This document shows positions 45,448-63,552 of a DNA stretch of 64,000 bases, in pieces. Under the pieces are notes generated by a model that saw only the letters and a program-made list of their open reading frames with translations, searched no databases and was not told the DNA's origin. The stretch lies in the NCBI GenBank assembly GCA_965243025.1, contig CBDETY010000003.1:64001-128000 (forward strand). Reading direction: 5' to 3'. A program made the translations under genes and the position numbers. Within the stretch, counting starts at the first letter, position 1; each line of letters opens with the position of its first letter. The stretch comes from Candidatus Latescibacterota bacterium. GTDB lineage: Bacteria; Latescibacterota; UBA2968; UBA8231.

Positions 45448-46332
45448 TTACCCCGATTTCACGGACAGTTTTCCGTTTGGATTTATACCCCTTGATAAAT
45501 GATACCTCTCGTAGTTGATGGGAGATCGTTGTCCCAGGGCCGAGTGCCGCCGATGGGGGTTGTACCAGCCTTCCAGGTATTCGAAAACCGTACGCTGGGC
45601 TTGCGACTGGGTAGCAAACCGATGACGATCCAGCAGCTCCCTTTCCAAGGTGGCGAAAAAGCTTTCGCACAGAGCATTGTCGAAGCAGTCACCGACCGAT
45701 CCCATCGACGGACGTACCCCGGCCTGGCGACAGCGCTTCCCGAAGGCCAGGGCCGTATACTGACTGCCGTGGTCGGAGTGGTGAATCACTTTCTTGGGAC
45801 GGCGCCGGTGCAGGGCCATGTCAAGGGCGTCCAGCACCAACTGCGTACGCATATGGTTCGCCATGGCCCAGCCCACCACTCGGCGGCTCCAGGCGTCCAT
45901 GACCACGCTCAGATACAAAAACCCCGACCTCGTGGGAATGTAGGTGAGATCGGCAACCCACAGGCGATTCGGGCCGGAGACCGAAAACACCCGCTTGACC
46001 AGGTCGGAGGCGACCCGGCCCTGCCGGCCGCGACGGGTGGTGGAGAGGCGGCGGCGGGCGCATACCCCGCGCACCCCGAGCTCAAGCATCAATCGGGCGA
46101 TGCGCTTGCGACCGATGGCTTGGCCCTCCTCGGCCAGTTCGGCCCGGATCCTCGGCGCTCCATAAGTGCCCCGGGAGTGTTGGTGGATCTGCTCGACACG
46201 TGCCTTGAGCACGGCATCGGCCCGGGCGCGACCCGAAGGCGGGCGTTTCAACCAGGCGTAGTAGCCGCTGGGGGAGACCTTCAGCACGCGGCACATCGTC
46301 AGCACCGGAAAGTCGGCCTGGTGCGCTCTCAT
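45448..46332 (-). CDS. IS3 transposase OrfB (DDE integrase core)
   Basis: WVADLTYI, HHSDHGSQY, DNALCESFFATLERE and YNPHRRHSALG motifs. Confidence 0.95.
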   Translation of the reverse strand: MRAHQADFPVLTMCRVLKVSPSGYYAWLKRPPSGRARADAVLKARVEQIHQHSRGTYGAPRIRAELAEEGQAIGRKRIARLMLELGVRGVCARRRLSTTRRGRQGRVASDLVKRVFSVSGPNRLWVADLTYIPTRSGFLYLSVVMDAWSRRVVGWAMANHMRTQLVLDALDMALHRRRPKKVIHHSDHGSQYTALAFGKRCRQAGVRPSMGSVGDCFDNALCESFFATLERELLDRHRFATQSQAQRTVFEYLEGWYNPHRRHSALGQRSPINYERYHLSRGINPNGKLSVKSG

Positions 46333-46643
46333 GAACTCGTAGACGGGCCGGACTCCGAGTCGGCCTCGCGAGCGAACCAGGCCGTGGCTTTTGCCAGGAT
46401 CTCCCGTTCGATACGCAGTTGCTTGTTCTCACGGCGAAGGCGCCGCAATTCCTCCTGCTCCGGACGGGAGGGGCCGTCGCGGCGCACCCCCTCATCGCGT
46501 TCGGCCTGGATCACCCAGTTGCGGATCGTCTGCCCGGACGGCTCGAATTCCTTGGCCAGCGACTCCGGACTACGACCCGCCCGTACCAGTTCCACCATCT
46601 GTTGCCGGAATTCGGGCGGATAAGGGGAATGGGATTTCGGCAT
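46329..46643 (-). CDS. IS3 transposase OrfA (HTH)
   Basis: YPPEFRQQMVELV..LAKEF..TIRNW..EELRRLRREN..EREILAKA. ATGA overlap with orfB. Confidence 0.95.
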   Translation of the reverse strand: MPKSHSPYPPEFRQQMVELVRAGRSPESLAKEFEPSGQTIRNWVIQAERDEGVRRDGPSRPEQEELRRLRRENKQLRIEREILAKATAWFAREADSESGPSTSS

Positions 46644-49634: not shown

Positions 49635-50792
49635 CTAAATCGCCTGCCTGAAGATCCCCTCGACGTCCCGGCGCGCGGTCTTGCGGGGGTTGACCTGGAT
49701 GTTTGCGCTCTGCATGGCGGCTTCTGCGAGGTCCTCGATGCCGCTCTCCTCGACCCCGAGCGTTCCCAGCTTCTCCGGAATTCCCAGGTCCTCGTTGAGC
49801 TGGCGCACCAGCTTCACCGCCTGTCGGGCCGCCTCATGGTCGCCGAGCCCATCGGTATCTCCCCCGAGCGCCCCGGCGACGTCGGCGAACCTGCCGGTCC
49901 GCGAGGGGAGGTTGAACTCCATCACGTACGGCAGCAGCACGGCGTTGGCGAGCCCGTGGTGGACGCCGAACTGGGCCCCGACCGGGTGCGACATGGCGTG
50001 CACGTTGCCGAGCCGGGTCTGCGAAAAGGCGATTCCCGCCATGGCGCTGGCCAGCAGCATGTTCTGGGTCGCTTCGGTCTCGTAGTCGTTGGCGCAGGCG
50101 AGCCGCAGGTTCTCCCCGATCAGGCGCATCGCCTCGAGGGCCATGCCGTCGCTCGCCGGGGAGGCCATCAGGTTGGTGTACGACTCGATGGCGTGGGTCA
50201 GGGCGTCCATCCCGGTGGGACCGCCTACCGCCGCGGGCAGGGCGGTGCACAGGGCGGCGTCGAGGACGCCGGCGCGCGGGGCGATCCGCCAGCTGACGAC
50301 GGGGTCCTTGTTGCGGGATGCCGGGTTGGTCAGCACCGCGAACGGGGTGACTTCGCTGCCGGTGCCGTAAGTGGTGGGCACGCAGACCAGGGGGGGGATG
50401 TCCCTGGTGATCTTCCCAGGGGCCATCAGGTACTCCTCGATGCGGCCCCCGTGGGAGGCGAGGACGCCGATCATCTTGGCGACGTCCATCGGGCTTCCGC
50501 CCCCCACGCCGAGCAGGGCGCCGCACTCCTGTTCGCTGAAGATGCGGGCCCCTTCCTCGACGCAGCTCGCCGGGGGGTTGGGGAGCACCCCGGAGAACAG
50601 GGTGCAGTCGACCTCCGCCTCATCGAGGACCGCGGCGACCTTGTCTATCACCCCGGCCTCGCGCAGCCCCTCGTCGGTGACGAGGAGGATCCGGGTGCCG
50701 GAGGGCAGCAGTTCGGGAAGCCGGGAAAGGGCGCCGGGACCGTGCAGCAGCCGCGTCGGGCTGCGGAACTCGAGGATTTCCTGATAGGCCAT
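49635..50792 (-). CDS. Iron-containing alcohol dehydrogenase
   Basis: GGGSPMD, PTTYGTGSEVT, DALTHAIE and HAMSH..HHGLAN motifs. Confidence 0.93.
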   Translation of the reverse strand: MAYQEILEFRSPTRLLHGPGALSRLPELLPSGTRILLVTDEGLREAGVIDKVAAVLDEAEVDCTLFSGVLPNPPASCVEEGARIFSEQECGALLGVGGGSPMDVAKMIGVLASHGGRIEEYLMAPGKITRDIPPLVCVPTTYGTGSEVTPFAVLTNPASRNKDPVVSWRIAPRAGVLDAALCTALPAAVGGPTGMDALTHAIESYTNLMASPASDGMALEAMRLIGENLRLACANDYETEATQNMLLASAMAGIAFSQTRLGNVHAMSHPVGAQFGVHHGLANAVLLPYVMEFNLPSRTGRFADVAGALGGDTDGLGDHEAARQAVKLVRQLNEDLGIPEKLGTLGVEESGIEDLAEAAMQSANIQVNPRKTARRDVEGIFRQAI

Positions 50793-50845
50793 AAGTCCGT
50801 CTGTCTGATAGGGTTAGAACAGTGGTGGGCCCAATGCGGCTGGCC

Positions 50846-51850
50846 CTATTCCATCTCAAGGGAGGCCTTGATCCGCCCCCAGGAGACCGATTCGACCGCG
50901 GAGCCTTCCGGCTCGGTGTTGGCGGGCAGCAGGATGCCGTCGAGGAAAAAATCCGCTTGAACAAATATTATGTCGAAAATTGTGTCTAATTCCCTACCCT
51001 CGCCGGGATCAGTGGGCTCCATGGCTTCGGGGATCCACCAGGTCGGCGCCCTTTCGTTTTCGTCCCAGTCATTCACCATGATCGCAAAGCCGATCACTTG
51101 TCCCGGTGCCAGATCGCTGAATTCCGTCTCTTCTATCTCATCCCACGCTCCCCCCGAATCGTGCGGAGTGACATACAGCTCGATCACGCTGATGGTCGGC
51201 GCTTCCCCGAATGCGCCCCCGCCCGCATCTCCATACGGGGGAAACATTTTCCAGGAGAATCCCCGAGCCCCGTCAGGGGTATCGATCAGCGGCCCGGTGA
51301 CGGTGCGGGCAATCGCCTCATATCTCTGGGTTCGGCCGTATGCCTGCATTTGCTCCTCCTGGGTCGAAAAAAACGAAAATCCTTCCCCCCCACTGTGGTC
51401 TCCGTCGAATGCCAGAGTGATGCTGTCATGCATTTCGATGGAGCTTCGGCCCCCATCAGGAGCATCGTAGTCGTGATCGTTCCGATACAGATCATCGCTG
51501 GCTGCGAAGGCGACGTAGAGACGGTCCGGGTCGTCGTGCCAGGCCAGCCAGATCCGGAAGTCGAGGTTGGAGGGATCCGGAAGCATGTAGTTCGTGGGTG
51601 TCTTAAAATCCAGCAGGGTCATGGCCGGCTCGCCGATCAGCTCGAACCATTCGTCTAACATTCCGTCGTCGAGCTGGATCTGTTCCAGCATCTCGTCGGT
51701 CAGCTCGGCGATCGGGAAGACTCGACCGCCGCTGTGGGCGCCTGCCTGAGCAGGAAAGCAGGCGGACAGGGCCGACCCGACGAGCAGGCCGAGGGCCATG
51801 CGCCGGTGATTCCTGAGACATCCCGCACCATCTGGTTTCCTTCGGCTCAT
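50846..51850 (-). CDS. Secreted CBM9/DOMON-like protein with SWGRIK C-terminal tail, paralog 1
   Basis: Signal peptide ending AGA-H. DG..DEW, FRIWLAWH..RLYVAF..DD, DGDHSGG, IGFAI.V.D and AVESVSWGRIKASLE. Start is uncertain (51850 or 51799). Confidence 0.65.
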   Translation of the reverse strand: MSRRKPDGAGCLRNHRRMALGLLVGSALSACFPAQAGAHSGGRVFPIAELTDEMLEQIQLDDGMLDEWFELIGEPAMTLLDFKTPTNYMLPDPSNLDFRIWLAWHDDPDRLYVAFAASDDLYRNDHDYDAPDGGRSSIEMHDSITLAFDGDHSGGEGFSFFSTQEEQMQAYGRTQRYEAIARTVTGPLIDTPDGARGFSWKMFPPYGDAGGGAFGEAPTISVIELYVTPHDSGGAWDEIEETEFSDLAPGQVIGFAIMVNDWDENERAPTWWIPEAMEPTDPGEGRELDTIFDIIFVQADFFLDGILLPANTEPEGSAVESVSWGRIKASLEME

Positions 51851-51866
51851 GCCCGAGAGGACTGTC

Positions 51867-52751
51867 TTACTCCCGGCTGGAGACGAAACAGAGGCTCTCG
51901 CCGTCAGGCGACCAGGCCGGCTTCCAGTCTCCGTCATGCCCCGACGTCAACCGGGCGATACCGGTTCCATCCGCGGCCATGCGATATATGGAGGTCACCC
52001 CGTCCCGGTTGGAAACGAAGGCGATCTCTTTGCCGTCGCTGGACCACGTCGGCTGCCGGTCCAGGGCAGGGTGATCGGTGAGGTTGACGACCTGGCCGCT
52101 GGCCACCTCGAGGATGCAGATCTCGAAATTGCCGAACCGGTTGCTCTCGAAGACAATCAGGCTGCCGTCCGGGGACCAGGACGAGTGAGCGTCGAACCCC
52201 TCATTCAAAGTCAGGTTCCGCAGGTTCCGGCCGTGGTGGTCGGCGACATACAGCTCGAGATTGCCGTCGCGGTGGGTGGTGAAAGCGAGGTGTTGTCCAT
52301 CAGGCGAGAAGGCCGGCTGGATGGCGTCCGCCAGGATCGGTTCCAAAGCGGAGTCTCCGGCACGGAGCTTCATGACGTAGATGTCGTAGGACTCCGGCTC
52401 CTCTGTTTTTCCGGCGAAGGCGATCCGGGTGCCGTCGGGAAACCAGGAAACCCCTCCCACGCTGGTTATCCGCGGCGGTACCGGCATTCTCAGGAGTACC
52501 TCCCCGGCCCGGGAGGCGAGGTGGAACTCGTTCCCGTTTTCGGTGTGCGCGACGTACAAGAGCCGGCCGTCCGGGCCCCAACTCGGGGTGGACCGGCCCT
52601 CCGTCGGAGACAGGCGCTCGATGGAGGTTCCGTCCCGACCCATGCGAAAAACGCTCTCGACCTGAGTATGTGCGGCTTCTGGATTGGACCACTGCCAGAG
52701 GAGCGAAAAAAAGGACAGGCCAATCGTCAGTTTGCAAGGCATTTCAGTCAT
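51867..52751 (-). CDS. TolB-like PD40 beta-propeller protein
   Basis: Repeated P.WSPDG..I.F.S.R.G..(E/D)IY units and an N-terminal signal. Confidence 0.88.
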   Translation of the reverse strand: MTEMPCKLTIGLSFFSLLWQWSNPEAAHTQVESVFRMGRDGTSIERLSPTEGRSTPSWGPDGRLLYVAHTENGNEFHLASRAGEVLLRMPVPPRITSVGGVSWFPDGTRIAFAGKTEEPESYDIYVMKLRAGDSALEPILADAIQPAFSPDGQHLAFTTHRDGNLELYVADHHGRNLRNLTLNEGFDAHSSWSPDGSLIVFESNRFGNFEICILEVASGQVVNLTDHPALDRQPTWSSDGKEIAFVSNRDGVTSIYRMAADGTGIARLTSGHDGDWKPAWSPDGESLCFVSSRE

Positions 52752-52839
52752 AGGTCAGTCCCCTGAAGTGTGATTACGGAAGGGGGGGCGGTCGAGTTTG
52801 GGTAACCCGTCGAAGGCTCGATGGGGGGCATGACTTTGG

Positions 52840-53805
52840 TTACTCCATCTCCAGGGAGGCCTTGATCCGCCCCCAGGAAACCGACTCGACTGCGCTGTCT
52901 TCTCCCGGTTCGGCCGCGCCGGCCGGCAGCAGCAGCCCATCGAGGAAGTGCTCCGCCCGGTAACGGTACAGGATGTCTATTTCCGGGTCCTCACTCTGGA
53001 CTGCTTCAGGCCCCAAGAACCAACTGCCTTTGTCTTCGCTTTCCCCCACGAGGATCGCAAAGCCTATGACCTTTCCTGCCGTCAGATCGCTGACCACGAC
53101 GTCTTCAGGCCGACTGTCGCGTCCCTGCCAACTATCGTATGGAGTGAAGTACAGCTCGATTACCCTGATGGTCGGGTTTTCCCCGGCGACGCCACCGCCT
53201 GCGTCTGCGTAGGGAGGAAAGAACATCCAGGAATCCTCCGTGGTAACTACTGTGTACCCGCCACTCAAGCCGGACGTATGATAGCCATACAACGCAGTGC
53301 GGCCACTGGCAGTACGGGCAATTGCCCCGTATTGTTGCGATTCCCCCCAAAAATCCCACGTTTCGAAGGATTCCAAACGATTCCCACCGCCGCTGTGATC
53401 TCCGTCGATAGCCAGGATAAGATCATGATTATTATCATCCAGAATGTGCACGTCATCGCTGGCCGAGAAGGCCACATAGAGCCGATCCGGCTCATCGTGC
53501 CAGGCCAGCCAAATGCGGAAGTCCAGGTCAGATGGATCAGGTACCTCACCGAAGGCTCTGAAATCGACCAGGGACATGGTGGGTTCGCCGATCAGATCGA
53601 ACCACTCCTCCACCGAGCCGTCGTGAAGCTGGATCCCGGCCAGCATCTCGTCGGTCAACCCGGCGAACGGGAATAGTCGATTGCCTGCGTGGGCTTCTGC
53701 CCGGGCAGACAGGCCTGCCTGGGCAAACAGGCTCGCGGACACCGCCAGCAGCAGGAGCACGCTCAGAGCAGGGGGCACTTGCTTTTTCATGCGGATGCAG
53801 GTCAT
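52840..53805 (-). CDS. Secreted CBM9/DOMON-like SWGRIK protein, paralog 2
   Basis: Start re-called at MTCIRMKKQ. Leader nearly identical to paralogs 3 and 4, divergent core, same C-tail. Confidence 0.65.
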   Translation of the reverse strand: MTCIRMKKQVPPALSVLLLLAVSASLFAQAGLSARAEAHAGNRLFPFAGLTDEMLAGIQLHDGSVEEWFDLIGEPTMSLVDFRAFGEVPDPSDLDFRIWLAWHDEPDRLYVAFSASDDVHILDDNNHDLILAIDGDHSGGGNRLESFETWDFWGESQQYGAIARTASGRTALYGYHTSGLSGGYTVVTTEDSWMFFPPYADAGGGVAGENPTIRVIELYFTPYDSWQGRDSRPEDVVVSDLTAGKVIGFAILVGESEDKGSWFLGPEAVQSEDPEIDILYRYRAEHFLDGLLLPAGAAEPGEDSAVESVSWGRIKASLEME

Positions 53806-53857
53806 CTGTCTTTCTCCCTGTTCGCAGGTCACCATTGATGAGGAGATGGCGGTACGG

Positions 53858-54856
53858 CTACTCCATCTCCAGGGAGGCCTTGATCCGCCCCCAGGAGACC
53901 GACTCGGCCGCGGTGTCTTCCGGTCCGGCGCCGGCCGGCAGCAGGATGCCGTCGAGGAAAAAATCCGCTCGGGCATTACGTATGTCGACTTCCGTACGGA
54001 AACGAGGATCACTGGGCTGCATGGCTTCGGGGGTCCAGGACCACCCGATTGCCTCTTCTTCCTCGTCCCAGTCCTCCACCATGATCGCAAAGCCGATCAC
54101 CTGTCCCGCAGCCAGATCCGTGAACTCCGTCTCTTCGATCCCATCAAATGTCCCCCACCGGTCGTAGGGGGTGACATACAGCTCGATCACGCTGATGACC
54201 GGCGCTTCCCCGAAGACGCCCCCGCCCGCATCCCCGTACGGGGGAAACAGCTTCCAGGAGAACGCCCCCGTCCGACGTCCAACGTAGTTGTCCATGGTCG
54301 GTCCGCTGGCGGTGCGGGCGATGGCATCATATAGCTGCGCTTGCCCACTGGCTTCCATCAACTCCTCCTCTGTCGAAGTTGAGGTAGTTCCGGCGCCGCC
54401 ACCGTGATCCCCGTCGATGGTCAGAGTGATGCTGTCATGGTTCGGGATGTTCCTTCGTATGCCATACCCATCGTGGTCGTGATCGTTCCGGTACACATCA
54501 TCGCTGGCCACGAAGGCTACGTAGAAACGGTCCGGGTCGTCGTGCCAGGCCAGCCAGATGCGGAAGTCGAGGTCGGAGGGATCGGGTGGCAGGTAGTTGC
54601 TATGGGTCTGGAAATCCAGCAGGGTCATGGCCGGCTCGCCGATCAGCTCGATCCACTCGTCTATGCGGCCGTCGTGGAGCTGGATCTGTTCCAGCATTTC
54701 GTCGGTAAGCTCTGGAATGGGGTACACCCGCCCGCCGCTGTGGGCGTCTGCCCGGGCACACAGGCCTGCCTGGGCAAACAGGCTCGCCGTCACCGCCAGC
54801 AGCAGGAGTACGCTCAGCGCAGGGGGCACTTGCTTTTTCATGCGGATGCAGGTCAT
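53858..54856 (-). CDS. Secreted CBM9/DOMON-like SWGRIK protein, paralog 3
   Basis: 999-bp ORF from MTCIRMKKQ, near-identical to paralog 4. Confidence 0.65.
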   Translation of the reverse strand: MTCIRMKKQVPPALSVLLLLAVTASLFAQAGLCARADAHSGGRVYPIPELTDEMLEQIQLHDGRIDEWIELIGEPAMTLLDFQTHSNYLPPDPSDLDFRIWLAWHDDPDRFYVAFVASDDVYRNDHDHDGYGIRRNIPNHDSITLTIDGDHGGGAGTTSTSTEEELMEASGQAQLYDAIARTASGPTMDNYVGRRTGAFSWKLFPPYGDAGGGVFGEAPVISVIELYVTPYDRWGTFDGIEETEFTDLAAGQVIGFAIMVEDWDEEEEAIGWSWTPEAMQPSDPRFRTEVDIRNARADFFLDGILLPAGAGPEDTAAESVSWGRIKASLEME

Positions 54857-54911
54857 CTGTCTTTTCTCCCTGTTCGCAGGTCGCGGTTTGGATGAGGAGA
54901 TGGCGGTACGG

Positions 54912-55910
54912 CTACTCCATCTCGAGGGAGGCCTTGATCCGGCCCCAGGAGACCGACTCGACCGCGGTGTCTTCCGGTCCGGCGCCGGCCGGCAGCAGGA
55001 TGCCGTCGAGGAAAAAATCCGCTCGGGCATTACGTATGTCGACTTCCGTACCGAAACGAGGATCACTGGGCTGCATGGCTTCGGGGGTCCAGGACCACCC
55101 GATTGCCTCTTCTTCCTCGTCCCAGTCCTCCACCATGATCGCAAAGCCGATCACCTGTCCCGCAGCCAGGTCGGTTAACTCCGTCTCTTCGATCTCATCC
55201 CACGTCCCCCACCGGTCGTAGGGGGTGACATACAGCTCGATCACGCTGATGACCGGCGCTTCCCCGAAGACGCCCCCGCCCGCATCCCCGTACGGGGGAA
55301 ACAGCTTCCAGGAGAACGCCCCCGTCCGACGTCCAACGTAGTTGTCCATGGTCGGTCCGCTGGCGGTGCGGGCGATGGCATCATATCGCTGCGCTTGCCC
55401 ACGGGCTTCCATCAACTCCTCCTCTGTCGAAGTTGAGGTAGTTCCGGCGCCGCCGCCGTGATCCCCGTCGATGGTCAGAGTGATGCTGTCATGGTTCGGG
55501 ATGTTCCTTCGTATGCCATACCCATCGTGGTCGTGATCGTTCCGGTACACATCATCGCTGGCCACGAAGGCTACGTAGAAACGGTCCGGGTCGTCGTGCC
55601 AGGCCAGCCAGATGCGGAAGTCGAGGTCGGAGGGATCGGGTGGCAGGTAGTTGCTATGGGTCTGGAAATCCAGCAGGGTCATGGCCGGCTCGCCGATCAG
55701 CTCGATCCACTCGTCTATGCGGCCGTCGTGGAGCTGGATCTGTTCCAGCATTTCGTCGGTAAGCTCTGGAATGGGGTACACCCGCCCGCCGCTGTGGGCG
55801 TCTGCCCGGGCACACAGGCCTGCCTGGGCAAACAGGCTCGCGGACACCGCCAGCAGCAGGAGTACGCTCAGCGCAGGGGACACCTGCTTTTTCATGCGGA
55901 TGCAGGTCAT
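54912..55910 (-). CDS. Secreted CBM9/DOMON-like SWGRIK protein, paralog 4
   Basis: 999-bp ORF with RBS aaggag. Offset from paralog 3 by 1054 bp. Confidence 0.65.
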   Translation of the reverse strand: MTCIRMKKQVSPALSVLLLLAVSASLFAQAGLCARADAHSGGRVYPIPELTDEMLEQIQLHDGRIDEWIELIGEPAMTLLDFQTHSNYLPPDPSDLDFRIWLAWHDDPDRFYVAFVASDDVYRNDHDHDGYGIRRNIPNHDSITLTIDGDHGGGAGTTSTSTEEELMEARGQAQRYDAIARTASGPTMDNYVGRRTGAFSWKLFPPYGDAGGGVFGEAPVISVIELYVTPYDRWGTWDEIEETELTDLAAGQVIGFAIMVEDWDEEEEAIGWSWTPEAMQPSDPRFGTEVDIRNARADFFLDGILLPAGAGPEDTAVESVSWGRIKASLEME

Positions 55911-55960
55911 CTGTCTTTTCTCCTTTTTGTTTCCCTCCAAACGAAATCGGCGTATGCGCG

Positions 55961-55999
55961 GTGCCCCAACGCCCCCAATGGTCAAGGGCGTTGGGGCAC
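55961..55999 (-). terminator. 14-bp perfect stem-loop downstream of the small peptide gene
   Basis: gtgccccaacgccc / gggcgttggggcac. A second small hairpin gcaggg..ccctgc lies at 56012-56030. No U-tract. Confidence 0.55.
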
Positions 56000-56034
56000 T
56001 CTTCAGCCGGGCGCAGGGTTCGGGGCCCTGCCGG

Positions 56035-56259
56035 TCAGTCGCTGCAGCTGCAGTCGCCGGTGTCGCAGTTCCAGCTGTAACTGTCGTGGTTCACGAGTGC
56101 GCACTCGTATGCGCACATGTTGGCGGTGCTCGTCGTCTGCTCGTGCGACGACTCATACCAGGACAGGGGCGGGGAGTGCGCGTCCGTCAAGGACGCACCG
56201 CCCAGCAGGAGCCCTGCCCCCAGCAGGACGGCGACGATGTACTTCGCAAGATGCGACAT
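56035..56259 (-). CDS. Small secreted Cys-rich peptide with CS-alpha-beta (defensin-like) spacing
   Basis: RBS aaggagg, signal peptide ending TDA-H, and a mature part with C-x3-C-x11-C-x4-C-x-C. Confidence 0.7.
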   Translation of the reverse strand: MSHLAKYIVAVLLGAGLLLGGASLTDAHSPPLSWYESSHEQTTSTANMCAYECALVNHDSYSWNCDTGDCSCSD

Positions 56260-56318
56260 GCTGCCTCCTTTGTGTTCGGGGTTAGCGCCTGTCGCTACCC
56301 CGTTTCATCCAGAAGACA

Positions 56319-56334
56319 TGCAAATGCCGTGCCG
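56319..56334 (-). promoter_or_regulatory. Sigma54 (-24/-12) promoter
   Basis: Minus strand reads CGGCACGGCATTTGCA (GG-N10-GC; consensus TGGCACG-N4-TTGCA), 60 bp upstream of the peptide ATG and next to a sigma54 activator gene. Confidence 0.8.
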
Positions 56335-56467
56335 GTACCGGGCCGGCGGCTCCATCGGTGCTGTCCGTGACGACGTAACCTGTTATTTTCATGGTGGTTA
56401 TTACACCACATTTTTTTATTTTCGGCACAATCAGCTCCCGCGGCGCCGCCATCGGCTTCTCGGTCTC

Positions 56468-56527
56468 GTCGTATTTAATACGATTCGGCCGTATTTAATA
56501 CGACTTGGCCGTATTTAATACGACTTC
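56468..56527. repeat. Three tandem 20-bp units each carrying the palindrome CGTATT-T-AATACG (candidate enhancer/UAS)
   Basis: cgtatttaatacga at 56470, 56490 and 56510. Confidence 0.9.
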
Positions 56528-56635
56528 CCCGATAGCCGCGGCCGACGGCTGGTTGCTCCTGCTTTCGTTCTTCCTTATTGGTACGGTTCTGTGGATAACA
56601 ACCCACCTTGCCCCACAAAGAAAACGGATTCGAAA

Positions 56636-59600
56636 ATGAACGAGGCACGCGAACCCCATTCCCCATCCACCCGGGTCGAGGGTGGGGGGGTGGCTTTCGA
56701 CCATATCCTCGGGCGCCAGTACACGGTCTTCGACGGGCTGGCCGGGATGCACGTGGAAGACATCTACCAAGACCGCCGGGGGCTCCTCTGGATCGCCACC
56801 GCCGACGGCGGGGTCAGCCGCTTCGACGGGGCCCGGTTCGAGACCTTCGGCCCCTCGAACGGGCTTCCCCATCTCAACGCGATGACCATTGCCGAAGACG
56901 AGGGCGGGCGCCTGTTGTTCGGCACTCTCGGGGGCGGGCTGGCCGCTTTCGACGGGCAGGGGTTTCAGGTGTACACCACCGCGGACGGACTGCCCTCCAA
57001 CGACATATTGAGCCTGCACCCCCGGGCGGACGGCTCGGTACAGGTGCTGACCGGGAACGGGATCGCCCGCTTTGTCGAGGGGCGGTGTCTGGAGCCGCTG
57101 ACGGACGTGGCCGGCCAATCCCTCGGAGCGGTGTACGACATGGCTACCGACGCGGCGGGTACGACGTGGCTGGCGTCGCGGGAGCGGGGGATCATCGACC
57201 TGGAAGGTCAGTCCATGAACGGGCATCCGGGCACCGGGGAAACAGCTATGCAATGGCCCTGGAAGTTCGCCCCGGACGCCTCCGGCGGTCTGTGGATCGC
57301 CTTCCGGTACGTGGGCAGCGAAGCCGTTGTCGGCCGTTACGACCCCGAGCGCCGGCAGCTCGACCTGATCGAGGTGGACCACGAGGTCGAGAGCGGCGAA
57401 GTGGTCCAGCACGGCACGCGGCATGTGCGCCAGGACGACAGGGGCTGGCTGTGGATGAGCCGCCGGGGGGTCCTGGTGTACGACGGGCAGGCCTGGCATT
57501 CGTTTTCCGCCCGCTTGCAGGGCACCCATTTCTCGGACACGCGGCTGACCTGCGAGGACCGCGAGGGCAACATCTGGATAGGACTGTGGGGCGGCGGGCT
57601 GCTCTTCTGCGATCCGGTCAGCGTGCAGTTGTACACGGAAGCCGACGGTTTGCCCGACAACGAGGTCCAGTGCCTGGACGAAGACGGGCGGGGTCGGCTG
57701 TGGATCGGGACCATGGGGGGCCTGGCCTGCCGGGAAGAGGACCGCATCCGTACGGTCAATGCCGGGCAAATGGTTTCGGCGCTGGCGGCAGACGGCCCCG
57801 GGCCGGTTTGGAGCGGAAGCCCGGAGGGCAAGGTATTCAAGTGGACGGGAAAAGAATCCCGAGCGATCGAGGTGGCCGAAACCGGCTCCGGGGAAGAGAT
57901 CACGGCCCTGTGCGCGGACGGCCGCGGGCATGTATGGGCCGGCACCTCCCGGGGGCGCCTGGGGCGGGTGGAAGCCGACCGGTTCAACCCGGTGGCTGAG
58001 GAGCTGCCCCATGAGTGCAGCGCCGTGCTGCCGGCCCGGGACGGTGTCTTATGGGTCGGCACCGGGGGGCCCGCCCCGGCGCTTTACCGGTACGAGGATG
58101 GCCGCTTCCAGCCGCCCTCCCTGGCCGGCCTGGAGGCCGTATCCGAAGTGACGGCCTTGTGCGAGCACCAGGGCCACCTCTGGGTGGGCACGGCCAACAG
58201 CGGCCTGTTCGCCCTGGATTTCTCCGCGCAGGAGATTCGCCGGTTTACCGTGGACCGGGGGGACTTGTCGGTAAACGGCATTCTCTGTCTGGTGGCCGAC
58301 CCGGAGCAGGACTGCCTGTGGGTCGGCACGAGCGGCGGCGGGGTGCTGAGGTACGACGGGCATGCGTTCCAGACCATCCGCCTGGGGAACGCCGGCCTGG
58401 AGAACGTGGTCGAGGCCATCCTGATCGACAGCGATGACAGCCTGTGGTTCGGGACCCGGGCGGGTCTCGTCGCGTACCACCCCGGCCAGGTGCCGCCTGC
58501 CCTGGCGATCGGGCGGGTCGAGGCCGGGCGTCTCTTCAAGGCCCCCCGGGCCGTGACCTGCAAGGAAAGCACCCGCGAGGTTCTGATCGAGTTCCAGGGC
58601 ATCAGTTTCAGAACCGGGGCGGAGCAACTGCGTTACAGCCACCGCCTGGCCGGTCATGCCCCGGCGGAAGCCTGGAGCGAATTCACCTCCGCCAATTCTG
58701 TTTCGTTTTCCGGTCTGCCGGCCGGCCGGTTCTGCTTCGAGGTGCGGACCATGGACCGGGACCGCTTGATTTCGGAAGCGGTCAGCCTGGAGGTGCAGGT
58801 GGTTGCGGAGAAGCAAAGCGCGCCCGGTTCGGCCCTGGAGCATATGCCGTGGACCTCTCGGGAGGACATGCTCAGAAACAGTCCGGTCATGTCCCGGGTC
58901 CTGAAACTGGCCGAACAGGTGGCCGGGACCGGGATGACGGTGCTGATTCTGGGGGAGACCGGGGTGGGCAAGGGGGTGCTCGCCGAACACATTCACGCCG
59001 CGAGCTCGCGCCGGGGGCATCCCTTTGTACCGGTCAACTGCGGTGGCCTGCCCCCGGGGTTGGTTGAAAGCGAACTGTTCGGGCACGAAAAGGGCGCCTT
59101 CACCAACGCGGTGGAACGGAAGAAAGGCCGGTTCGAACAGGCGCACGAGGGCACCCTGTTCCTCGATGAAATAGGCGACCTGCCCTTGGAGGCTCAAGGG
59201 GTCCTGCTTCACATCCTGGAGGATCGACACCTATTACGCGTCGGCGGGGAGACGCCCGTCCCGGTGGATTTCAGGGTGGTTGCGGCCACCAACCGGGATT
59301 TGAAAGAGGCCATCACCAAAGGGGATTTCCGGGAAGACCTGTTCCACCGCCTGAACGTGTTCCCGGTGAAAATCCCGCCTCTGCGGGATCGGGGGGAGGA
59401 AATACCGTTCCTCGCCGCCTACTTCGCGAGCCGGTTTGCCGGCGAGTTGGGGCGGCCGGTGCCGTCTCTGAGCTCCGAGGTGTTGAGGCACTTCCAGGAG
59501 TATCCCTGGCCGGGTAACGTGCGCGAGCTGGAGCACGTGATGCAGCGGGCGGTGCTCGTGTGCCGGGATCACGTCGTGCAGCTGGAGGATGGGCTTCCTG

Positions 59601-59851
59601 ATGAAGACCTGTACTGGGATGATGGGTCTGCTTCGTCGCCTGCGTCGGCTCCGCCGGTCGACCCAGGGGAAGGAACCGAAGCCGGCACGGTCTTCAAGTC
59701 CGAAGAGCAACAAATCCTGGAAGCCCTCCAGGCAACCGAAGGGGTCGTATATGGGCCGAAAGGCGCGGCTGTCTTGTTGGGCATGAATCCGGAGCGGTTG
59801 CGTTCCCGCCTGCGGGTGTACGGGTTGGAAAAACCAAAGAAACAGTCTTGA
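56636..59851 (+). CDS. Sigma54-dependent activator with N-terminal two-component-regulator propeller repeats and Y_Y_Y-like domain
   Basis: DGL...V..I..D..G.LWI.T..GG repeats, then [54 protein letters not shown] and a C-terminal HTH. Start could be 56591. Confidence 0.9.
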
Positions 59852-59869
59852 GCGGGGAGAAACCCGCTC
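59850..59869. terminator. Short hairpin between convergent genes
   Basis: gagcggg-gagaaa-cccgctc begins at the activator stop codon. Confidence 0.4.
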
Positions 59870-59951
59870 TCCCTCGGTGCCTCCCGGTTCGGTTCGGGTC
59901 TGCTGTGTATTGGGTAGACGTTCAGCCCACCTTCCTCTTGGCCGCCGTAAG

Positions 59952-60974
59952 TCACACGAACAAACGGGTGATCTCGTCGACCTCGTAGCGGGGCAGCTGC
60001 TCCAGCCTGCCGCGGCGCCGCAACCGCAGGCCGGCGGACCGGTCGACGGCGCGGGCGACGACCTCGGCGCCGATCCCCGCTTCGGCCAGCGCCGCAAGGA
60101 TCGGTTCCGCCGCCTCCTGCGGGCAGCCGATCAGCAGGGCCCCGGAGGAGATCGCCCCGAACGGGTCGAGGCCGTACTCGGCGCACAGGCGCCGCGATTC
60201 GTCGCGGCAGCGCAGGCGGTCGCCGAACACTTCGAGGCCGACCCCGGAGGCTGCGGCGAGCTCCCGCAGCCCGGTGGCGACCCCCCCTTCGGTCGGGTCG
60301 TGCATGGCGTGCACCTCGGCCGCTTCTGTGGCGACCGCGGCGTCCCGCACCACGCTGATTCCGGGGTCGCGCAGGTACCCGGCGCAGCGGTCGAGGAAGG
60401 CGGCCTCGAACCCCCGTTCCTCCAGCTCCCCGCGCTTCTCCCGCGCGATGATGGCGGTGGCCTCGACCGCCATCCCCTTGGTGAGCAGCACCGCGTCTCC
60501 GGGCACCAGGCCTGAGGAGCGCACCACCTTTCCGCAGTCGACGTCCCCGAGCATCTGGCCGACGACGATGGGCCGGTCGATGCCGTGAGTGATCTCGGTG
60601 TGGCCGCCGCAGACGGCGATCCCGAGCTGCCGGGCGGCCTCGTCGATCGAGCGGAACACCGATTCGATCAGGGCCTCGGTCGCCTGCTCTTCGGGGAGGA
60701 TGACGGAGGCGAGGAAGAAGCGGGGGGTAGCTCCCATGGCGGCGACGTCGTTGGCGTTGACGTGGACGGCGTACCAGCCGGCCTCGTCGGTGGCGAAGGT
60801 GATCGGGTCGGTCTTGGCGACCACGCAGCGGTCCCCGAAGCGGATGACGGCGGCGTCCTCGCCGATTCCGGGGGGAACCAGCAGGCGCTCGTTCTCTCCG
60901 GCGGCGTAGCGGGAGAGCATGCGCCCGAGCAGCTCGGGGGGGAGCTTGCCGGCGGGGTAGCGCTCGCCGTTCAC
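59952..60974 (-). CDS. AIR synthase-related (HypE/ThiL/PurM-like) protein
   Basis: GKLP.ELL, PGIGEDAAV, KTDPIT, VNANDVAAMGA, GGHTE and MHDPTEGG. GTG start overlaps the upstream stop (GTGA). Confidence 0.88.
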   Translation of the reverse strand: MNGERYPAGKLPPELLGRMLSRYAAGENERLLVPPGIGEDAAVIRFGDRCVVAKTDPITFATDEAGWYAVHVNANDVAAMGATPRFFLASVILPEEQATEALIESVFRSIDEAARQLGIAVCGGHTEITHGIDRPIVVGQMLGDVDCGKVVRSSGLVPGDAVLLTKGMAVEATAIIAREKRGELEERGFEAAFLDRCAGYLRDPGISVVRDAAVATEAAEVHAMHDPTEGGVATGLRELAAASGVGLEVFGDRLRCRDESRRLCAEYGLDPFGAISSGALLIGCPQEAAEPILAALAEAGIGAEVVARAVDRSAGLRLRRRGRLEQLPRYEVDEITRLFV

Positions 60975-62515
60975 CGGCGCTCCCCGGCGTAATGGGCGCA
61001 GATCGACCGCACGAGGGCGGGGATGCTGCTCTCGGGAGGCTGCAGGGCGGCCTCGAGCCCGAGGTCGCGGACCGCCTGCGCCGTGGTCGGGCCGATGCAG
61101 GCGAGGGCGGCTGCGGCCAGGTGGGCCATCCCCTTTTCCGGGCCGCAGACAGTGAGGAAGTTGCGCACCGACGAAGGGCTGGCGAAGACGATCATGTCGA
61201 GCCGGTTTTCGGTGAGGGCCGAGGGCAGCTCGACGGTTTCGGGGTCGGGGGGGCGGTTCTCGTAGGCGACGACGCGATGGACCTGCGCCCCCCGGCGCGC
61301 CAGCGCGGCGTCGAGACCGGTGCGGCCGATTGAGGATGCCGGTACCAGGAAGCTGGCCCCGGAAACCGCGATCTCCTCGAAGGCTGCGGCGAGCCCTTTC
61401 TGGGACTGCTCCCCCGGGACGAGGTCGGGCGCCAGTCCGCGGCGGCGCAGGTGCTGCGCCGTCGACATGCCGACCGCGGCGATGGAGCAGGGCCCGAGAG
61501 CGCGGGCGTCCTTTCCCAGGGCGGCGAGGCGGTCGAAGAAAAAGCTGACGCTGTTGGGGCTGGTGAACAGGATCCAGGCGAAATCCGGCAGGCGGCGGAG
61601 GGCGTTGTCGAGATCGCTCCAGTCCGGGGGCGGTCCGATCTCCAGCAGGGGCAGCGCCGAGACCTCGGCCCCTTCCGCCTCGAGCATCAGCTGCAGGCGG
61701 CCGGCCTGCTCGCGGCTGCGGGTGACGAGGATGCGGCGGCCGAACAGCGGCTTCCCCTCGAACCAGTTGAGCTGCTCCCGCAGGGAGACCACCTCCCCCA
61801 CGAGGACGAGGGTCGGCGACTCGAGGGACGCGTCTCTGGCCGCCTCGGCGACCCGTCCCAGAGTCGACACCACGGTGCGCTGGTGGGGCCAGGTCCCCCA
61901 CTCGATGGCCGCGGCCGGGGTTTCGGGAGTGCGCCCGTTCCGGGTCAGGGTGGCGGTGATCTCGCCGAGCTTGCGCGACCCCATGAAGACGACGAGGGTG
62001 CTGTCGAGCCGGGCAAGCATCTCCCAGTCGACCCCGGGGGCGCCGCGCGCGGGGTCCTCGTGCCCGGTGACGAGGACCGCGGCCGCCGAGACGTTGCGGT
62101 GGGTCAGGGGAATGCCGGCGTACGCCGGAACCCCGGAGGCCGCGGTCACTCCCGAGACGACCTCGAAAGGCACCCGGGCTTCGGCGAGGGCTACCGCCTC
62201 CTCACCGCCGCGGCCGAAGATGTAGGGATCTCCTCCTTTGAGGCGCACCACCCGGCGCCCCTCCCGCGCCAATTGAACGAGCAGCCCGTTGACCTCCTCC
62301 TGTTTCCGCGCGCCGCCGCCGCCGCGATGGCCGACGTACACCTTTTCGCAGTCCTCCCGGGCGAGCCTGAGAAGGCGCCGGTCGAGCAGGTCGTCGAACA
62401 GGATCACGTCCGCCTCGGAGACCAGGTGGGCCCCTTTCAGGGTCAGCAGGCCCGGGTCTCCAGGGCCGCCCCCGACGATGTAGACGGTTCCCGGCGCCGC
62501 CGGCGCGAAGTTCAT
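60971..62515 (-). CDS. cobA: Uroporphyrinogen-III C-methyltransferase / uroporphyrinogen-III synthase fusion (CobA-HemD)
   Basis: VGGGPGDPGLLT, RLKGGDPYIFGRGGEE, KPLFGRRILVTR, FTSPNSV, FASPSSV and CIGPTT. Confidence 0.93.
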   Translation of the reverse strand: MNFAPAAPGTVYIVGGGPGDPGLLTLKGAHLVSEADVILFDDLLDRRLLRLAREDCEKVYVGHRGGGGARKQEEVNGLLVQLAREGRRVVRLKGGDPYIFGRGGEEAVALAEARVPFEVVSGVTAASGVPAYAGIPLTHRNVSAAAVLVTGHEDPARGAPGVDWEMLARLDSTLVVFMGSRKLGEITATLTRNGRTPETPAAAIEWGTWPHQRTVVSTLGRVAEAARDASLESPTLVLVGEVVSLREQLNWFEGKPLFGRRILVTRSREQAGRLQLMLEAEGAEVSALPLLEIGPPPDWSDLDNALRRLPDFAWILFTSPNSVSFFFDRLAALGKDARALGPCSIAAVGMSTAQHLRRRGLAPDLVPGEQSQKGLAAAFEEIAVSGASFLVPASSIGRTGLDAALARRGAQVHRVVAYENRPPDPETVELPSALTENRLDMIVFASPSSVRNFLTVCGPEKGMAHLAAAALACIGPTTAQAVRDLGLEAALQPPESSIPALVRSICAHYAGERR

Positions 62516-63456
62516 GGTGAGGCCGTGTCCTTGCGGCCCGCCCGCTCCAGCAGCCGGTCCGCTCCGGCTTCGAGCAGCTCGGCGGCCTGGTCGCGGCCGA
62601 GGGCGTCCGCGGCGTCGGGAAGGCCCTCGCCGGTGCGCCGCAGCAGCTCGCTGCCGTCCGCGGAGGCGACCAGGCCGTCGAGGAACAGCTCGCCGCTGAT
62701 CTCGCGCCCCCAGGCGGCGACCGGGGCGCGGCAGCCGGCGCCGAGGGTGTGGAGGAGGCTGCGCTCGGCCGCGGCGCCGGCCCGGGTCGGTCCGTGGTTG
62801 AGCTCGGCAACCAGTCCGCGGCGGGGGTCTCCCCGGCGCATCTGCAGGCCGAGAACTCCCTGTCCGGGGGCGGGCAGCATCTCGTCGGTGTCGAGGTAGG
62901 AGCTGATGCGGTCGAGCAGGCCGAGCCGCTGCAGGCCGGCGGCTGCCAGCACGACGCCGTCGAGGCCGTCCGCGCCGACTTTGCCTATCCGGGTGTCGAC
63001 GTTGCCGCGGATCTCCGCGAACCGCAGGTCGGGCCGGAGCGCCAGCAGTTGGGCGCGGCGGCGGGGGCTGCCGGTACCGAGAAGGGCTCCCCCGGGCAGC
63101 TCCTCGAGGCTGCGGTCCCCGGCGGTGACCAGCACGTCCCGCACGTCGGCCCGGGCAGGGGCGGCGGCCAGCTCGAGATCGGCGGGGACCGCTGTCGGCA
63201 GGTCCTTGAGGCTGTGGACGGCGAGGTCGACCCGACCGTCCCGCAGGGCGGTTTCGAGTTCCGCGGTGAACACCCCCTGCCCGCCGATCTCCGAGAGCGG
63301 ACCGCGGGAACGGTCCCCCTCGGTGCGGACGATCTCCAGCTGCAGATCCAGGGTGTCGCCGACCTCTTCCCGGAGCAGCGCGCAGACGCGCTCCGCCTGG
63401 GCGAGGGCCAGCCTGCTGCCGCGGGTGCCAACGGTGAGGGAATGCCGGGGGGCCAC
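62512..63456 (-). CDS. hemC: Hydroxymethylbilane synthase (porphobilinogen deaminase)
   Basis: GTRGSRLALAQ, AVHSLKDLP, RGNVDTR, LPAPGQG and LGAGCRAPV. GTG start re-called at 63456. Confidence 0.95.
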   Translation of the reverse strand: MAPRHSLTVGTRGSRLALAQAERVCALLREEVGDTLDLQLEIVRTEGDRSRGPLSEIGGQGVFTAELETALRDGRVDLAVHSLKDLPTAVPADLELAAAPARADVRDVLVTAGDRSLEELPGGALLGTGSPRRRAQLLALRPDLRFAEIRGNVDTRIGKVGADGLDGVVLAAAGLQRLGLLDRISSYLDTDEMLPAPGQGVLGLQMRRGDPRRGLVAELNHGPTRAGAAAERSLLHTLGAGCRAPVAAWGREISGELFLDGLVASADGSELLRRTGEGLPDAADALGRDQAAELLEAGADRLLERAGRKDTASP

Positions 63457-63552
63457 GAGTGACGGGAAATTCTGCCGAAGGGAAGGAGGGAAGTGAGTCG
63501 CCCGAATATAGAAGCGGCCCCGGACCATCAACAGCTTTCGGCCCCTGGCCAA

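Follow-up and report, generated by a model that had tools for sequence, protein, structure and literature searches.

Conserved histidine at the predicted mature N-terminus of six exported proteins from a sigma54-type operon of an uncultured Latescibacterota bacterium

An uncultured Latescibacterota bacterium carries, on the minus strand of the stretch of DNA analyzed here (64,000 nucleotides in full, hereafter the window), an operon in which six genes for exported proteins lie behind one sigma54-type promoter. The products are a 74-aa Cys/His-rich peptide, four CBM9-like beta-sandwich paralogs and one PD40 beta-propeller. All six are predicted to start with His after removal of the signal peptide, and this residue (His+1, or His1 of the mature protein) is retained in all three families. 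By analogy with published proteins, the N-terminal His may be a chelating ligand for a transition metal (Cu, Ni, Zn, Co or Fe) in the manner of histidine-brace and CopC-type sites, here on new scaffolds, a reading to which we would give an even chance. The features of the operon and its control region are as follows (positions in the window).

56591..59851, plus strand: gene for a sigma54 enhancer-binding protein of 1086 aa, divergent from the operon, with a Reg_prop/Y_Y_Y propeller sensor, an AAA+ domain and an HTH
56470..56526, no strand assigned: 20-bp tandem repeat in 2.8 copies, each with the palindrome CGTATTTAATACG (Tandem Repeats Finder score 100, 94% matches)
56319..56334, minus strand: sigma54 -24/-12 promoter-like element, CGGCACGGCATTTGCA, which precedes the ATG of the peptide gene by 60 nt
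56035..56259, minus strand: exported peptide, 74 aa (His28 codon 56178-56176)
55961..55999, minus strand: 18-bp perfect RNA hairpin without a U-tract, between the peptide gene and paralog 4
54912..55910, minus strand: CBM9-like paralog 4 (His+1 codon 55796-55794)
53858..54856, minus strand: CBM9-like paralog 3 (His+1 codon 54742-54740), 98% identical in DNA to paralog 4
52840..53805, minus strand: CBM9-like paralog 2 (His+1 codon 53691-53689)
51867..52751, minus strand: PD40 (TolB-like) beta-propeller, 294 aa (His+1 codon 52670-52668)
50846..51850, minus strand: CBM9-like paralog 1 (His+1 codon 51736-51734; residues numbered from the Met at 51799)

The six open reading frames are all present on the minus strand where a previous sequence-only reading of this DNA had placed them. 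The promoter-like element CGGCACGGCATTTGCA departs from TGGCACG-N4-TTGCW at one position and is the sole such match within the window. It combines with the adjacent gene for an enhancer-binding protein (Pfam matches Sigma54_activat 3e-65, Reg_prop 3.6e-38 and AAA_lid_14 7e-21) and with upstream repeats to give the arrangement predicted for a sigma54-controlled operon. The palindromic 20-bp repeats, from their position about 140–200 bp upstream of the promoter, are candidate binding sites for the activator. A strong Shine-Dalgarno sequence precedes the peptide gene, and the hairpin that follows it (MFE -36.1 kcal/mol, z = -4.2) was equalled by none of 200 shuffles. No Rfam families were found in the window.

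The junctions on which the claim of an N-terminal His had been based are found in the sequence, namely LTDA-HSPP, ARADA-HSGG (twice), ARAEA-HAGN, AQAGA-HSGG and PEAA-HTQV, and in each of the six products the best signal-peptidase site directly precedes the His. Across homologues the site was placed by the -3/-1 small-residue rule, which is pattern-based. Of the diverse CBM9-like members, 94 of 104 follow this rule at the position directly before His and 52 of 104 at the runner-up site, which lies two residues further upstream; among the close members the counts are 107 and 82 of 108. Use of the runner-up site (x-x-A / G-A-H) would generate a mature X-X-His terminus, that is, an ATCUN-type motif for Cu(II) or Ni(II). 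Upstream sites were also the choice of a crude predictor that takes the first permissible site, which mis-placed many sites. The site directly before His nevertheless fits far more often, many members (V-H-G/H, T-W-A/H) lack a permissible site at that upstream position, and among the peptides such a site fits only two of seven, which makes an ATCUN terminus highly improbable.

In the peptide homologues the rule holds at the His site in 7/7, as it also does at sites 4 and 5 residues upstream. It holds before His in 17 of the 25 PD40 orthologues; seven of the eight that break it, including the closest relatives of the window protein, have Glu or Asp at -3, and in the remaining one (P0303) Pro occupies -1 and the His is replaced by Gln. 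The PD40 junction of the window has Glu at -3, and a possible upstream A-x-A site occurs in five of the six window proteins (e.g., AQA-GL in paralogs 2–4). On these patterns, the operon products are predicted to be cleaved exactly before His.

Conservation of His+1 across homologues, which the sequence-only reading had proposed to check, was borne out in each family. In the CBM9-like family it occurs in 121 of 123 close homologues and in 84 of 110 diverse representatives (76%; about 24% of diverse members are without it), as well as in all nine intact copies at Latescibacterota and other genome loci. It is present in 7/7 homologues of the peptide and in 24/25 PD40 orthologues, and is missing from more distant, generic TolB-like matches. 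In all three families it thus appears as a conserved residue next to a variable signal peptide. His occupies +1 in 2.6% of signal-peptide-cleaved proteins according to the available text of PMC12537917; at this base rate, the chance of finding it in three independent families is about 2e-5. Coincidence as the source of the shared His+1 was rejected on this base rate together with the conservation within each family.

The same distribution bears on the idea that His+1 is a processing, modification or sorting mark read by envelope machinery after export. The three families have only A-H at the junction in common, no partner residue was found for His+1 of the PD40 protein, and the residue is carried by 6/6 exported operon products against 0/5 of the other window proteins exported by a signal-peptidase-I-type route (inspected by eye). 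Such a mark fits poorly with the CBM9-like members that are devoid of His+1 (mostly with Gln instead), which keep the signal peptide, and in 22 of 26 cases also the fold and C-terminal tail, so that His+1 is probably not required for folding or export in this family. It fits poorly as well with the covariation of His+1 with buried or internal positions. We know of no sorting rule based on His+1, and we consider this explanation improbable; if true, it would likewise be new.

The CBM9-like family is large: the homologue search gave 562 matches, and 689 clusters are formed at 50% identity, with many copies per genome. Neither the search of the four window paralogs against Pfam (0 families at E <= 0.1, with PF06452 below its threshold) nor that against NCBIfam returned a match. 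When 149 family members were compared with PF06452 at E <= 1, eight gave weak matches, the strongest with E 1.2e-4, and the nearest ESM Atlas clusters bear this Pfam family. The AF2 model of paralog 1 (pLDDT 90, pTM 0.88) has the CBM9 beta-sandwich fold, and its best PDB matches by Foldseek are the CBM9 modules 7nwn (E 1.6e-8) and 1i82_A (E 2.3e-8), with a TM score of 0.73–0.75 on the target. Mean pLDDT over residues 1–10 of the mature chain is 85, in agreement with an ordered N-terminus. As these top matches are CBM9 modules, paralog 1 does not show the immunoglobulin/fibronectin-like fold of LPMOs; LPMO, CopC and PmoB are absent from the PDB matches listed for it, and no LPMO Pfam match was found in the window proteins or in the 149 family members (among 25 of 26 families listed).

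Weaker fold matches of the same model include the haem-binding NxrC (7b04_C, E 1.4e-3), EbdC (2ivf_C, E 5.6e-3) and cytochrome domains of cellobiose dehydrogenase, and hemC and hemD, for haem synthesis, are located nearby at 60971-63552 in the window. The CBM9-like paralogs could on these grounds be b-type haem proteins with His+1 and an internal His (His135) as axial ligands, like other cytochromes of the DOMON superfamily. We give this only the barest chance: sugar-binding CBM9 modules match far better (E about 1e-8 and TM 0.75 on target vs. 0.36–0.51), the peptide and the PD40 protein are left unexplained, and the hemC/hemD linkage is a conserved neighborhood which also occurs at a related locus (L001) without the remaining operon.

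Among 110 diverse representatives of the CBM9-like family, His+1 co-varies with the internal residues His135, in the motif D-G-D-H-S-G-G, and Asp287, in the last strand (F-L-D-G), as well as with residues of the C-terminal tail. The His+1/His135 pair ranks 9th of 38,503 column pairs by MI-APC, and the top partners of His135 are Asp287, Gly24 and His+1. Both His residues are present in 83 sequences, His+1 only in 1, His135 only in 11 and neither in 15, so that loss of His135 nearly always comes together with loss of His+1. The replacement of His135 is Arg or Lys in 9 of 16 cases, often with Asp287 altered as well, which would suit a cation site exchanged for a charged side chain. The Fisher p of 9e-11 for His+1/His135 ignores relatedness and is no true probability. 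On a FastTree phylogeny the minimum numbers of changes are 14 for His1, 10 for His135 and 9 for Asp287, and a tree-aware sign test gave p = 1, with just 4 and 1 independent pairs on supported branches, too few to give it power. The pattern may therefore be a subfamily signature; it also fits what is expected of a His/His/Asp metal site, in which the three residues would lie close in space.

A metal-free structural cap would also account for the covariation. According to this explanation, the first strand is pinned to the sandwich by H-bonds or salt bridges from His1 to Asp287 and His135, and the His of the peptide and that of the PD40 protein would have structural reasons of their own. The network of such bonds matches both the His1/His135/Asp287 set and the combinations in which Arg135 accompanies Glu287, Gln287 or His287; moreover, the N-terminus is confidently modelled and metal genes are absent nearby. 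Left unexplained are the presence of a +1 residue as rare as His in three unrelated proteins of one operon and its conservation within each family, and proteins with the His+1 signature bound metal in the work covered by the available text of PMC12537917. We judge the cap to be rather unlikely.

The peptide and the PD40 protein would extend the metal-binding reading beyond the CBM9-like fold. The peptide has a signal peptide at residues 1–27 and a predicted mature form of 47 aa from His28. Its homologues form 7 clusters, and the invariant positions (8 sequences only; mature numbering) are His1, Ser2, Ser6, His12 and the segment CAYECAL, which includes C-x3-C. Pfam and NCBIfam searches gave no match for the peptide. 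Its AF2 model is unreliable (pLDDT 50, pTM 0.23), so that of the three unrelated folds previously proposed to share His+1, two are established and that of the peptide is not. The 294-aa PD40 protein contains PD40 repeats (Pfam PD40 6.9e-43) and scores 169.8 bits against the TolB equivalog TIGR02800, below the cut-off of 343.15.

The neighborhoods of the paralogs at nine other loci are heterogeneous. Within 8 kb of the paralogs, tblastn searches at nine related genome loci found no peptide, PD40 protein or activator. The related locus with the hemC/hemD linkage has a single-copy paralog, of which paralog 1 is the positional orthologue. At another locus (L009), tandem paralogs adjoin a divergent Nramp metal transporter, a weak hint from context. 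Neither a gene for metal transport, a chaperone or a redox protein, in or beside the operon, nor copper genes accompanying it, were found in the window.

The sequence-only reading had considered Cu/Ni-binding or oxidative surface proteins. The metal-binding part is consistent with a conserved His+1 in three families. This conservation fits a principle set out in PMC12537917 (in the text available): on any fold, a His that signal-peptide cleavage leaves at the N-terminus chelates transition metals. The LPMO-like oxidative role is not supported, because the fold is CBM9-like and redox and copper genes are absent from the company of the operon. The phylum was described from anoxic habitats, as stated in the available part of PMC4454575, and chemistry of copper dependent on O2 or H2O2 is therefore less likely.

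From the comparisons above we infer metal binding, metal identity and physiological role of the operon products along the following lines. Like the N-terminal His of histidine-brace and CopC-type sites, His+1 would bind the metal by both its amino group and its imidazole ring. The internal His135 and Asp287 would supply the rest of the site in the CBM9-like proteins, and in the peptide the likely co-ligands would be the invariant His12 and the C-x3-C pair. Under the control of the sigma54 activator, the products may capture, hold or pass on metal outside the cytoplasm; metal chemistry on a bound glycan is a less likely role. A more ambitious version, in which the operon would be an extracellular metal-centered system of three new histidine-brace-type classes, is improbable: it would comprise a CBM9-like glycan scaffold turned into a copper/nickel site (for polysaccharide oxidation or surface metal capture), the peptide as a metallochaperone and the PD40 protein as a third His1 partner.

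If the His sites bind metal, they would provide the first functional handle on a very large unannotated family, found in Latescibacterota and in uncultured phyla related to them, and the range of histidine-brace-like folds would be extended by the CBM9/DOMON sandwich and the PD40 propeller. This would also be the first case known to us of several unrelated His1 proteins that are co-encoded and co-regulated, an arrangement that would therefore indicate hand-over of metal between them. No published description of the CBM9-like family or of a histidine brace on a CBM9 fold was found in the open literature; the supplementary data of PMC12537917 may hold further candidate families with an N-terminal His.

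With the family 9 modules (TmCBM9-2, 1i82; CkCBM9.3, 7nwn; PF06452) the paralogs have the beta-sandwich fold in common, but CBM9 domains are modules of enzymes whereas the paralogs are secreted on their own, are about 300 aa long and have, in addition to the CBM9 part, a conserved H-x-G-D-R motif at the N-terminus and a tail at the C-terminus. TmCBM9-2 binds reducing-end sugars in an aromatic clamp formed by Trp71 and Trp175 (PMC8280721); in the sole HMM alignment, a weak one (E 0.53), Trp71 falls opposite a variable acidic stretch of the paralog family. The PD40 protein resembles TolB and other PD40 periplasmic beta-propellers in being an exported propeller with PD40 repeats. With 294 aa and PD40 repeats only, it is too short for the N-terminal domain of TolB and, unlike its TolB-like relatives, it has a conserved His+1 specific to its subfamily.

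The available text of PMC12537917 describes four unrelated bacterial families (DUF4198, DUF6702, Ang-1 and Ang-2), found by "signal strapping", in which an N-terminal His left by signal-peptide cleavage predicted metal binding. Like the proteins described here, they are secreted and bacterial, have non-LPMO folds and a conserved His1 exposed by cleavage (predicted in the present case). In that text, His+1 is conserved at 79% and 65% in two of the families, compared with 76% of the diverse CBM9-like representatives, and Asp sometimes augments the site; a conserved internal His is also reported, with little or no oxidase activity and a suggested function in metal capture or transport. No Pfam match to DUF4198 or DUF6702 was found in the window proteins or, among 25 of 26 families listed, in the 149 family members. 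The present case, in which metal binding is so far a prediction, differs in its CBM9-like and PD40 propeller folds and in the grouping of three families in one operon. The histidine-brace copper proteins (LPMOs AA9–AA17, CopC and the CuB site of PmoB) combine a free N-terminal His with a second His. The site of CopC has a carboxylate ligand besides its His residues, and it is CopC that the candidate His1/His135/Asp287 set would resemble most closely.

All six genes of the operon run in tandem on the minus strand of the 64-kb window (approximately 65% G+C), and the relatives of this region are Latescibacterota metagenome-assembled genomes (MAGs). Every signal-peptide junction quoted in the sequence-only reading, which places a histidine right after the predicted cleavage site (His+1 or His1), was found in the sequence. 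The features of the region are:

56591-59851, divergent from the operon: sigma54 enhancer-binding protein gene; sensor repeats of the Reg_prop/Y_Y_Y type
56470-56526, upstream of the -24/-12 element: 20-bp repeat with a palindrome, 2.8 copies
56334..56319, upstream of the operon: sigma54-type -24/-12 element CGGCACGGCATTTGCA, one mismatch to the consensus
56259..56035, minus strand: 74-codon peptide gene (open reading frame with a strong Shine-Dalgarno sequence)
55961-55999, minus strand: perfect 18-bp GC-rich hairpin without a U-tract (-36 kcal/mol, z = -4.2), in the gap separating paralog 4 from the peptide gene
55910..54912, minus strand: open reading frame of ~330 codons, CBM9-like paralog 4, first of three upstream copies
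54856..53858, minus strand: open reading frame of ~330 codons, paralog 3
53805..52840, minus strand: open reading frame of ~330 codons, paralog 2
52751..51867, minus strand: open reading frame of 294 codons, PD40 protein
51850..50846, minus strand: open reading frame of ~330 codons, paralog 1, the fourth copy
50849-50896, 52843-52890, 53861-53908 and 54915-54962, minus strand: conserved tails of the CBM9-like paralogs, present also in nine related genome loci (L001-L009)
49635-63552: segment syntenic with 4026-10181 of L001

The name "sigma54 operon" used in the sequence-only reading appears fair because the -24/-12 element, the sole match of its kind within the window, is accompanied by the upstream repeat and the divergent activator gene. 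Reg_prop/Y_Y_Y propeller repeats usually occur in periplasmic sensors of hybrid kinases. No membrane segment was seen by eye in the activator (56591-59851), thus its ligand may be cytoplasmic. The hairpin may set the ratio of peptide to protein expression. Genes for a cytoplasmic Fe-ADH, a LarA-like protein and a Zn-ADH begin 54 nt downstream of paralog 1. Third-position G+C is lower in the operon genes and the activator (50846-59851; 0.75–0.82) than in flanking genes (0.88–0.95), and an IS3-family transposase pair occurs at 45448-46643.

The operon is flanked by hemC/hemD and Fe-ADH, and L001, a locus of another Latescibacterota genome, is syntenic with it, comprising hemC, cobA-hemD, an AIR-synthase-like gene, a lone CBM9-like gene and Fe-ADH. 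The activator, the peptide and the PD40 protein have no gene in L001; with these three genes and three further paralogs in addition, the window operon seems to be an L001-type locus that expanded locally. Paralogs 3 and 4 (53858-55910) share 98.2% DNA identity, upstream leaders included, and arose very recently, by tandem duplication or gene conversion. Neighbours are mixed in the other eight loci (PhyH dioxygenases in two), and in none of them does a gene for the peptide, the PD40 protein or the activator occur within 8 kb. In L009 (6548-10150) a gene for an Nramp-family divalent-metal transporter, the sole metal-related neighbour among the nine loci, is transcribed divergently from a tandem array of two or three CBM9-like paralogs. 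Several paralogs of L003, L008 and L009 are split across reading frames (tblastn, long-contig MAGs), being either pseudogenes or assembly indels. Source sequences of identical size, the sole basis for this inference, suggest that the three families are linked elsewhere too: P0023 and P0291 (8,820 bp), P0089 and P0295 (14,534 bp), P0103 and P0288 (17,768 bp), P0006/P0093 and P0280 (18,556 bp), and P0009 and peptide P0276 (3,862 bp).

The shared His+1 is real and not due to chance. Chance is rejected because none of five further exported proteins of the window, also of the signal-peptidase-I type, has by eye a His at +1 (Gln, Asp, Gln, Arg and Ser stand there), the base rate of His at this position is 2.6% (PMC12537917, a 2025 paper on N-terminal-His metalloproteins), and three independent families at this rate would give ~2e-5, conservation being left out of the calculation.

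Conservation of His+1, on which the sequence-only reading had made its proposal depend, is seen in all three families, where the signal peptide varies and the histidine is constant. The paralogs belong to a large family without a name (562 matches in a word-indexed search; 689 representatives at 50% identity in an exhaustive one, 470 of these <1e-10). Of 123 close sequences 121 have His, the remaining two being N-terminally truncated. It also occurs in 84/110 diverse representatives and in all nine intact copies of L001-L009, of which L002 comes from a MAG labelled Aminicenantes and the others from Latescibacterota MAGs. The seven homologue clusters of the peptide all read DA-HS at the junction, with His1, Ser2, Ser6, His12 and C-A-Y-E-C-A-L invariant. 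The PD40 protein belongs to a distinct orthologue group (identity of at least ~47%), in which His lies four residues before the first strand in 24 of the 25 members with an intact N-terminus, the exception having Gln; the residues in between vary (TQVE, SEHG, DFEG, LLEG, DLDG), and the farther TolB-like proteins of the match list have no such His. CBM9-like members without His+1 mostly have Gln at the same position, so that Gln replaces the lost histidine in two unrelated families, CBM9-like and PD40 (P0142, P0148, P0169, P0303 and others). At the N-terminus, Gln would turn into cyclic pyroglutamate and block the amine.

Cleavage was placed by the -3/-1 small-residue rule and, because of the adherence counted across homologues of each family, cleavage before His is the best-supported prediction, not a proven one. 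Among CBM9-like sequences the rule is kept right before His in 94/104 diverse and 107/108 close sequences, and at the second-best site, two residues upstream, in 52/104 and 82/108. For the peptide it is kept in 7/7 at the His site and likewise at sites four and five residues upstream, and paralogs 2–4 have an additional earlier site, AQA-GL. Cleavage two residues upstream, which would leave an X-X-His motif, fits the CBM9-like sequences far less often than cleavage before His and is regarded as very unlikely. PD40 orthologues keep the rule at the His site in 17/25; seven of the eight exceptions, including the closest relatives of the window protein, have Glu or Asp at -3, and in P0303, the last of them, -1 is Pro and Gln replaces His.

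Of the three unrelated folds proposed from the sequence, two stand; the third is reduced to a small Cys/His-rich peptide of no recognisable family because its model is unreliable (pLDDT 50). The PD40 protein differs from TolB in being a stand-alone propeller, scoring well under the TolB cut-off. The paralogs have no Pfam or NCBIfam match. Mature paralog 1, modelled with confidence by AlphaFold2 (149-sequence alignment; pLDDT 90, pTM 0.88), has family 9 carbohydrate-binding modules as best PDB matches (7nwn, E 1.6e-8, TM 0.75 on target; 1i82, E 2.3e-8), followed by a Bacteroides putative carbohydrate-binding protein and, far weaker, the haem-binding DOMON-type subunits NxrC and EbdC. Haem ligation by the histidine would find its precedent in these last matches, with the much stronger CBM9 ones against it, and is most improbable. 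PF06452 (CBM9_1) is present in 37%, 13% and 100% of members of ESM Atlas neighbours (collectively from Latescibacterota, Gemmatimonadota and Poribacteria) and weakly matches 8/149 family members. In the sole profile alignment to TmCBM9-2, a weak one (E 0.53), the family D-G-D-H loop lies opposite the CBM9 I-D-E-N-N loop, and the first clamp tryptophan opposite a variable acidic stretch of the paralog family. As modelled, the paralogs have a CBM9-like fold, yet are no canonical CBM9.

The final ~16 residues (A-V-E-S-V-S-W-G-R-I-K-A-S-L-E) are the best-conserved part of every CBM9-like member, even at 33–38% identity. Within the window and loci a regex search found this motif at protein C-termini of the CBM9-like family only, one further match being a degenerate T-W-A-R-V-K inside an L006 reading frame. 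The tail is of low confidence in the paralog 1 model (pLDDT ~50), is kept both with and without His+1, and looks like a putative docking or anchoring peptide. Most PD40 orthologues have a C-terminal extension, R-P-E-P-F-L-D-x-L-x-R-W-F-x-x-W-L-T-D-W (alignment, P0282-P0300), from which the window protein and its closest relatives are exempt.

In the diverse CBM9-like alignment, APC-corrected mutual information pairs the His+1 column most strongly, among non-local columns, with His135 of D-G-D-H-S-G-G (paralog 1 numbering from Met at 51799), this pair ranking 9 of 38,503, and the leading partners of His135 are Asp287 (last strand), Gly24 and His+1. Both histidines are present in 83 sequences, His+1 alone in 1, His135 alone in 11 and neither in 15, and the complete H-x-G...H...D pattern in 73/110. 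His135 is replaced by Arg (8), Lys (1) or other residues (7), Asp287 often being altered alongside, and 22/26 members without His+1 retain the signal peptide, fold and strongly conserved tail. Because of this covariation, joint replacement and otherwise intact His-less members, the residues look like a candidate separable His/His/Asp site given up by some lineages, and His+1 does not look like a residue required for export or folding. Shared ancestry qualifies the covariation: with the trait columns left out of tree building, His1 changes 14 times, His135 10 and Asp287 9, and a sign test cannot reach significance because only 4 and 1 contrasts fall on supported branches. His+1 covaries with tail positions as well. 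A non-metal structural cap would fit the same covariation but leaves the His+1 shared by three unrelated families unexplained, and is considered unlikely. The signal peptide, fold and tail retained by members without His+1 speak against a sorting or processing mark, which is judged quite unlikely. A metal site is the best available reading, with about an even chance of being right, and is favoured because of conservation, covariation and published precedent.

According to PMC12537917, a conserved His after the signal peptide predicts a transition-metal site well, irrespective of fold. The examples comprise DUF4198 (Ni; His1 + His18; His1 conservation 79%), DUF6702 (Ni, Co, Cu; 65%) and two characterised "anglerases", with CopC and PmoB as variants and aspartate sometimes part of the site; the window proteins lie outside DUF4198, DUF6702 and the anglerases. 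They differ from LPMOs by fold, and an LPMO-like oxidative function is unsupported. A literature search returned no histidine brace on DOMON/CBM9 folds and no account of this family in Latescibacteria, and the occurrence of three His+1 families within one operon appears to be new. If metal is bound, the window proteins would represent new scaffolds for a known principle.
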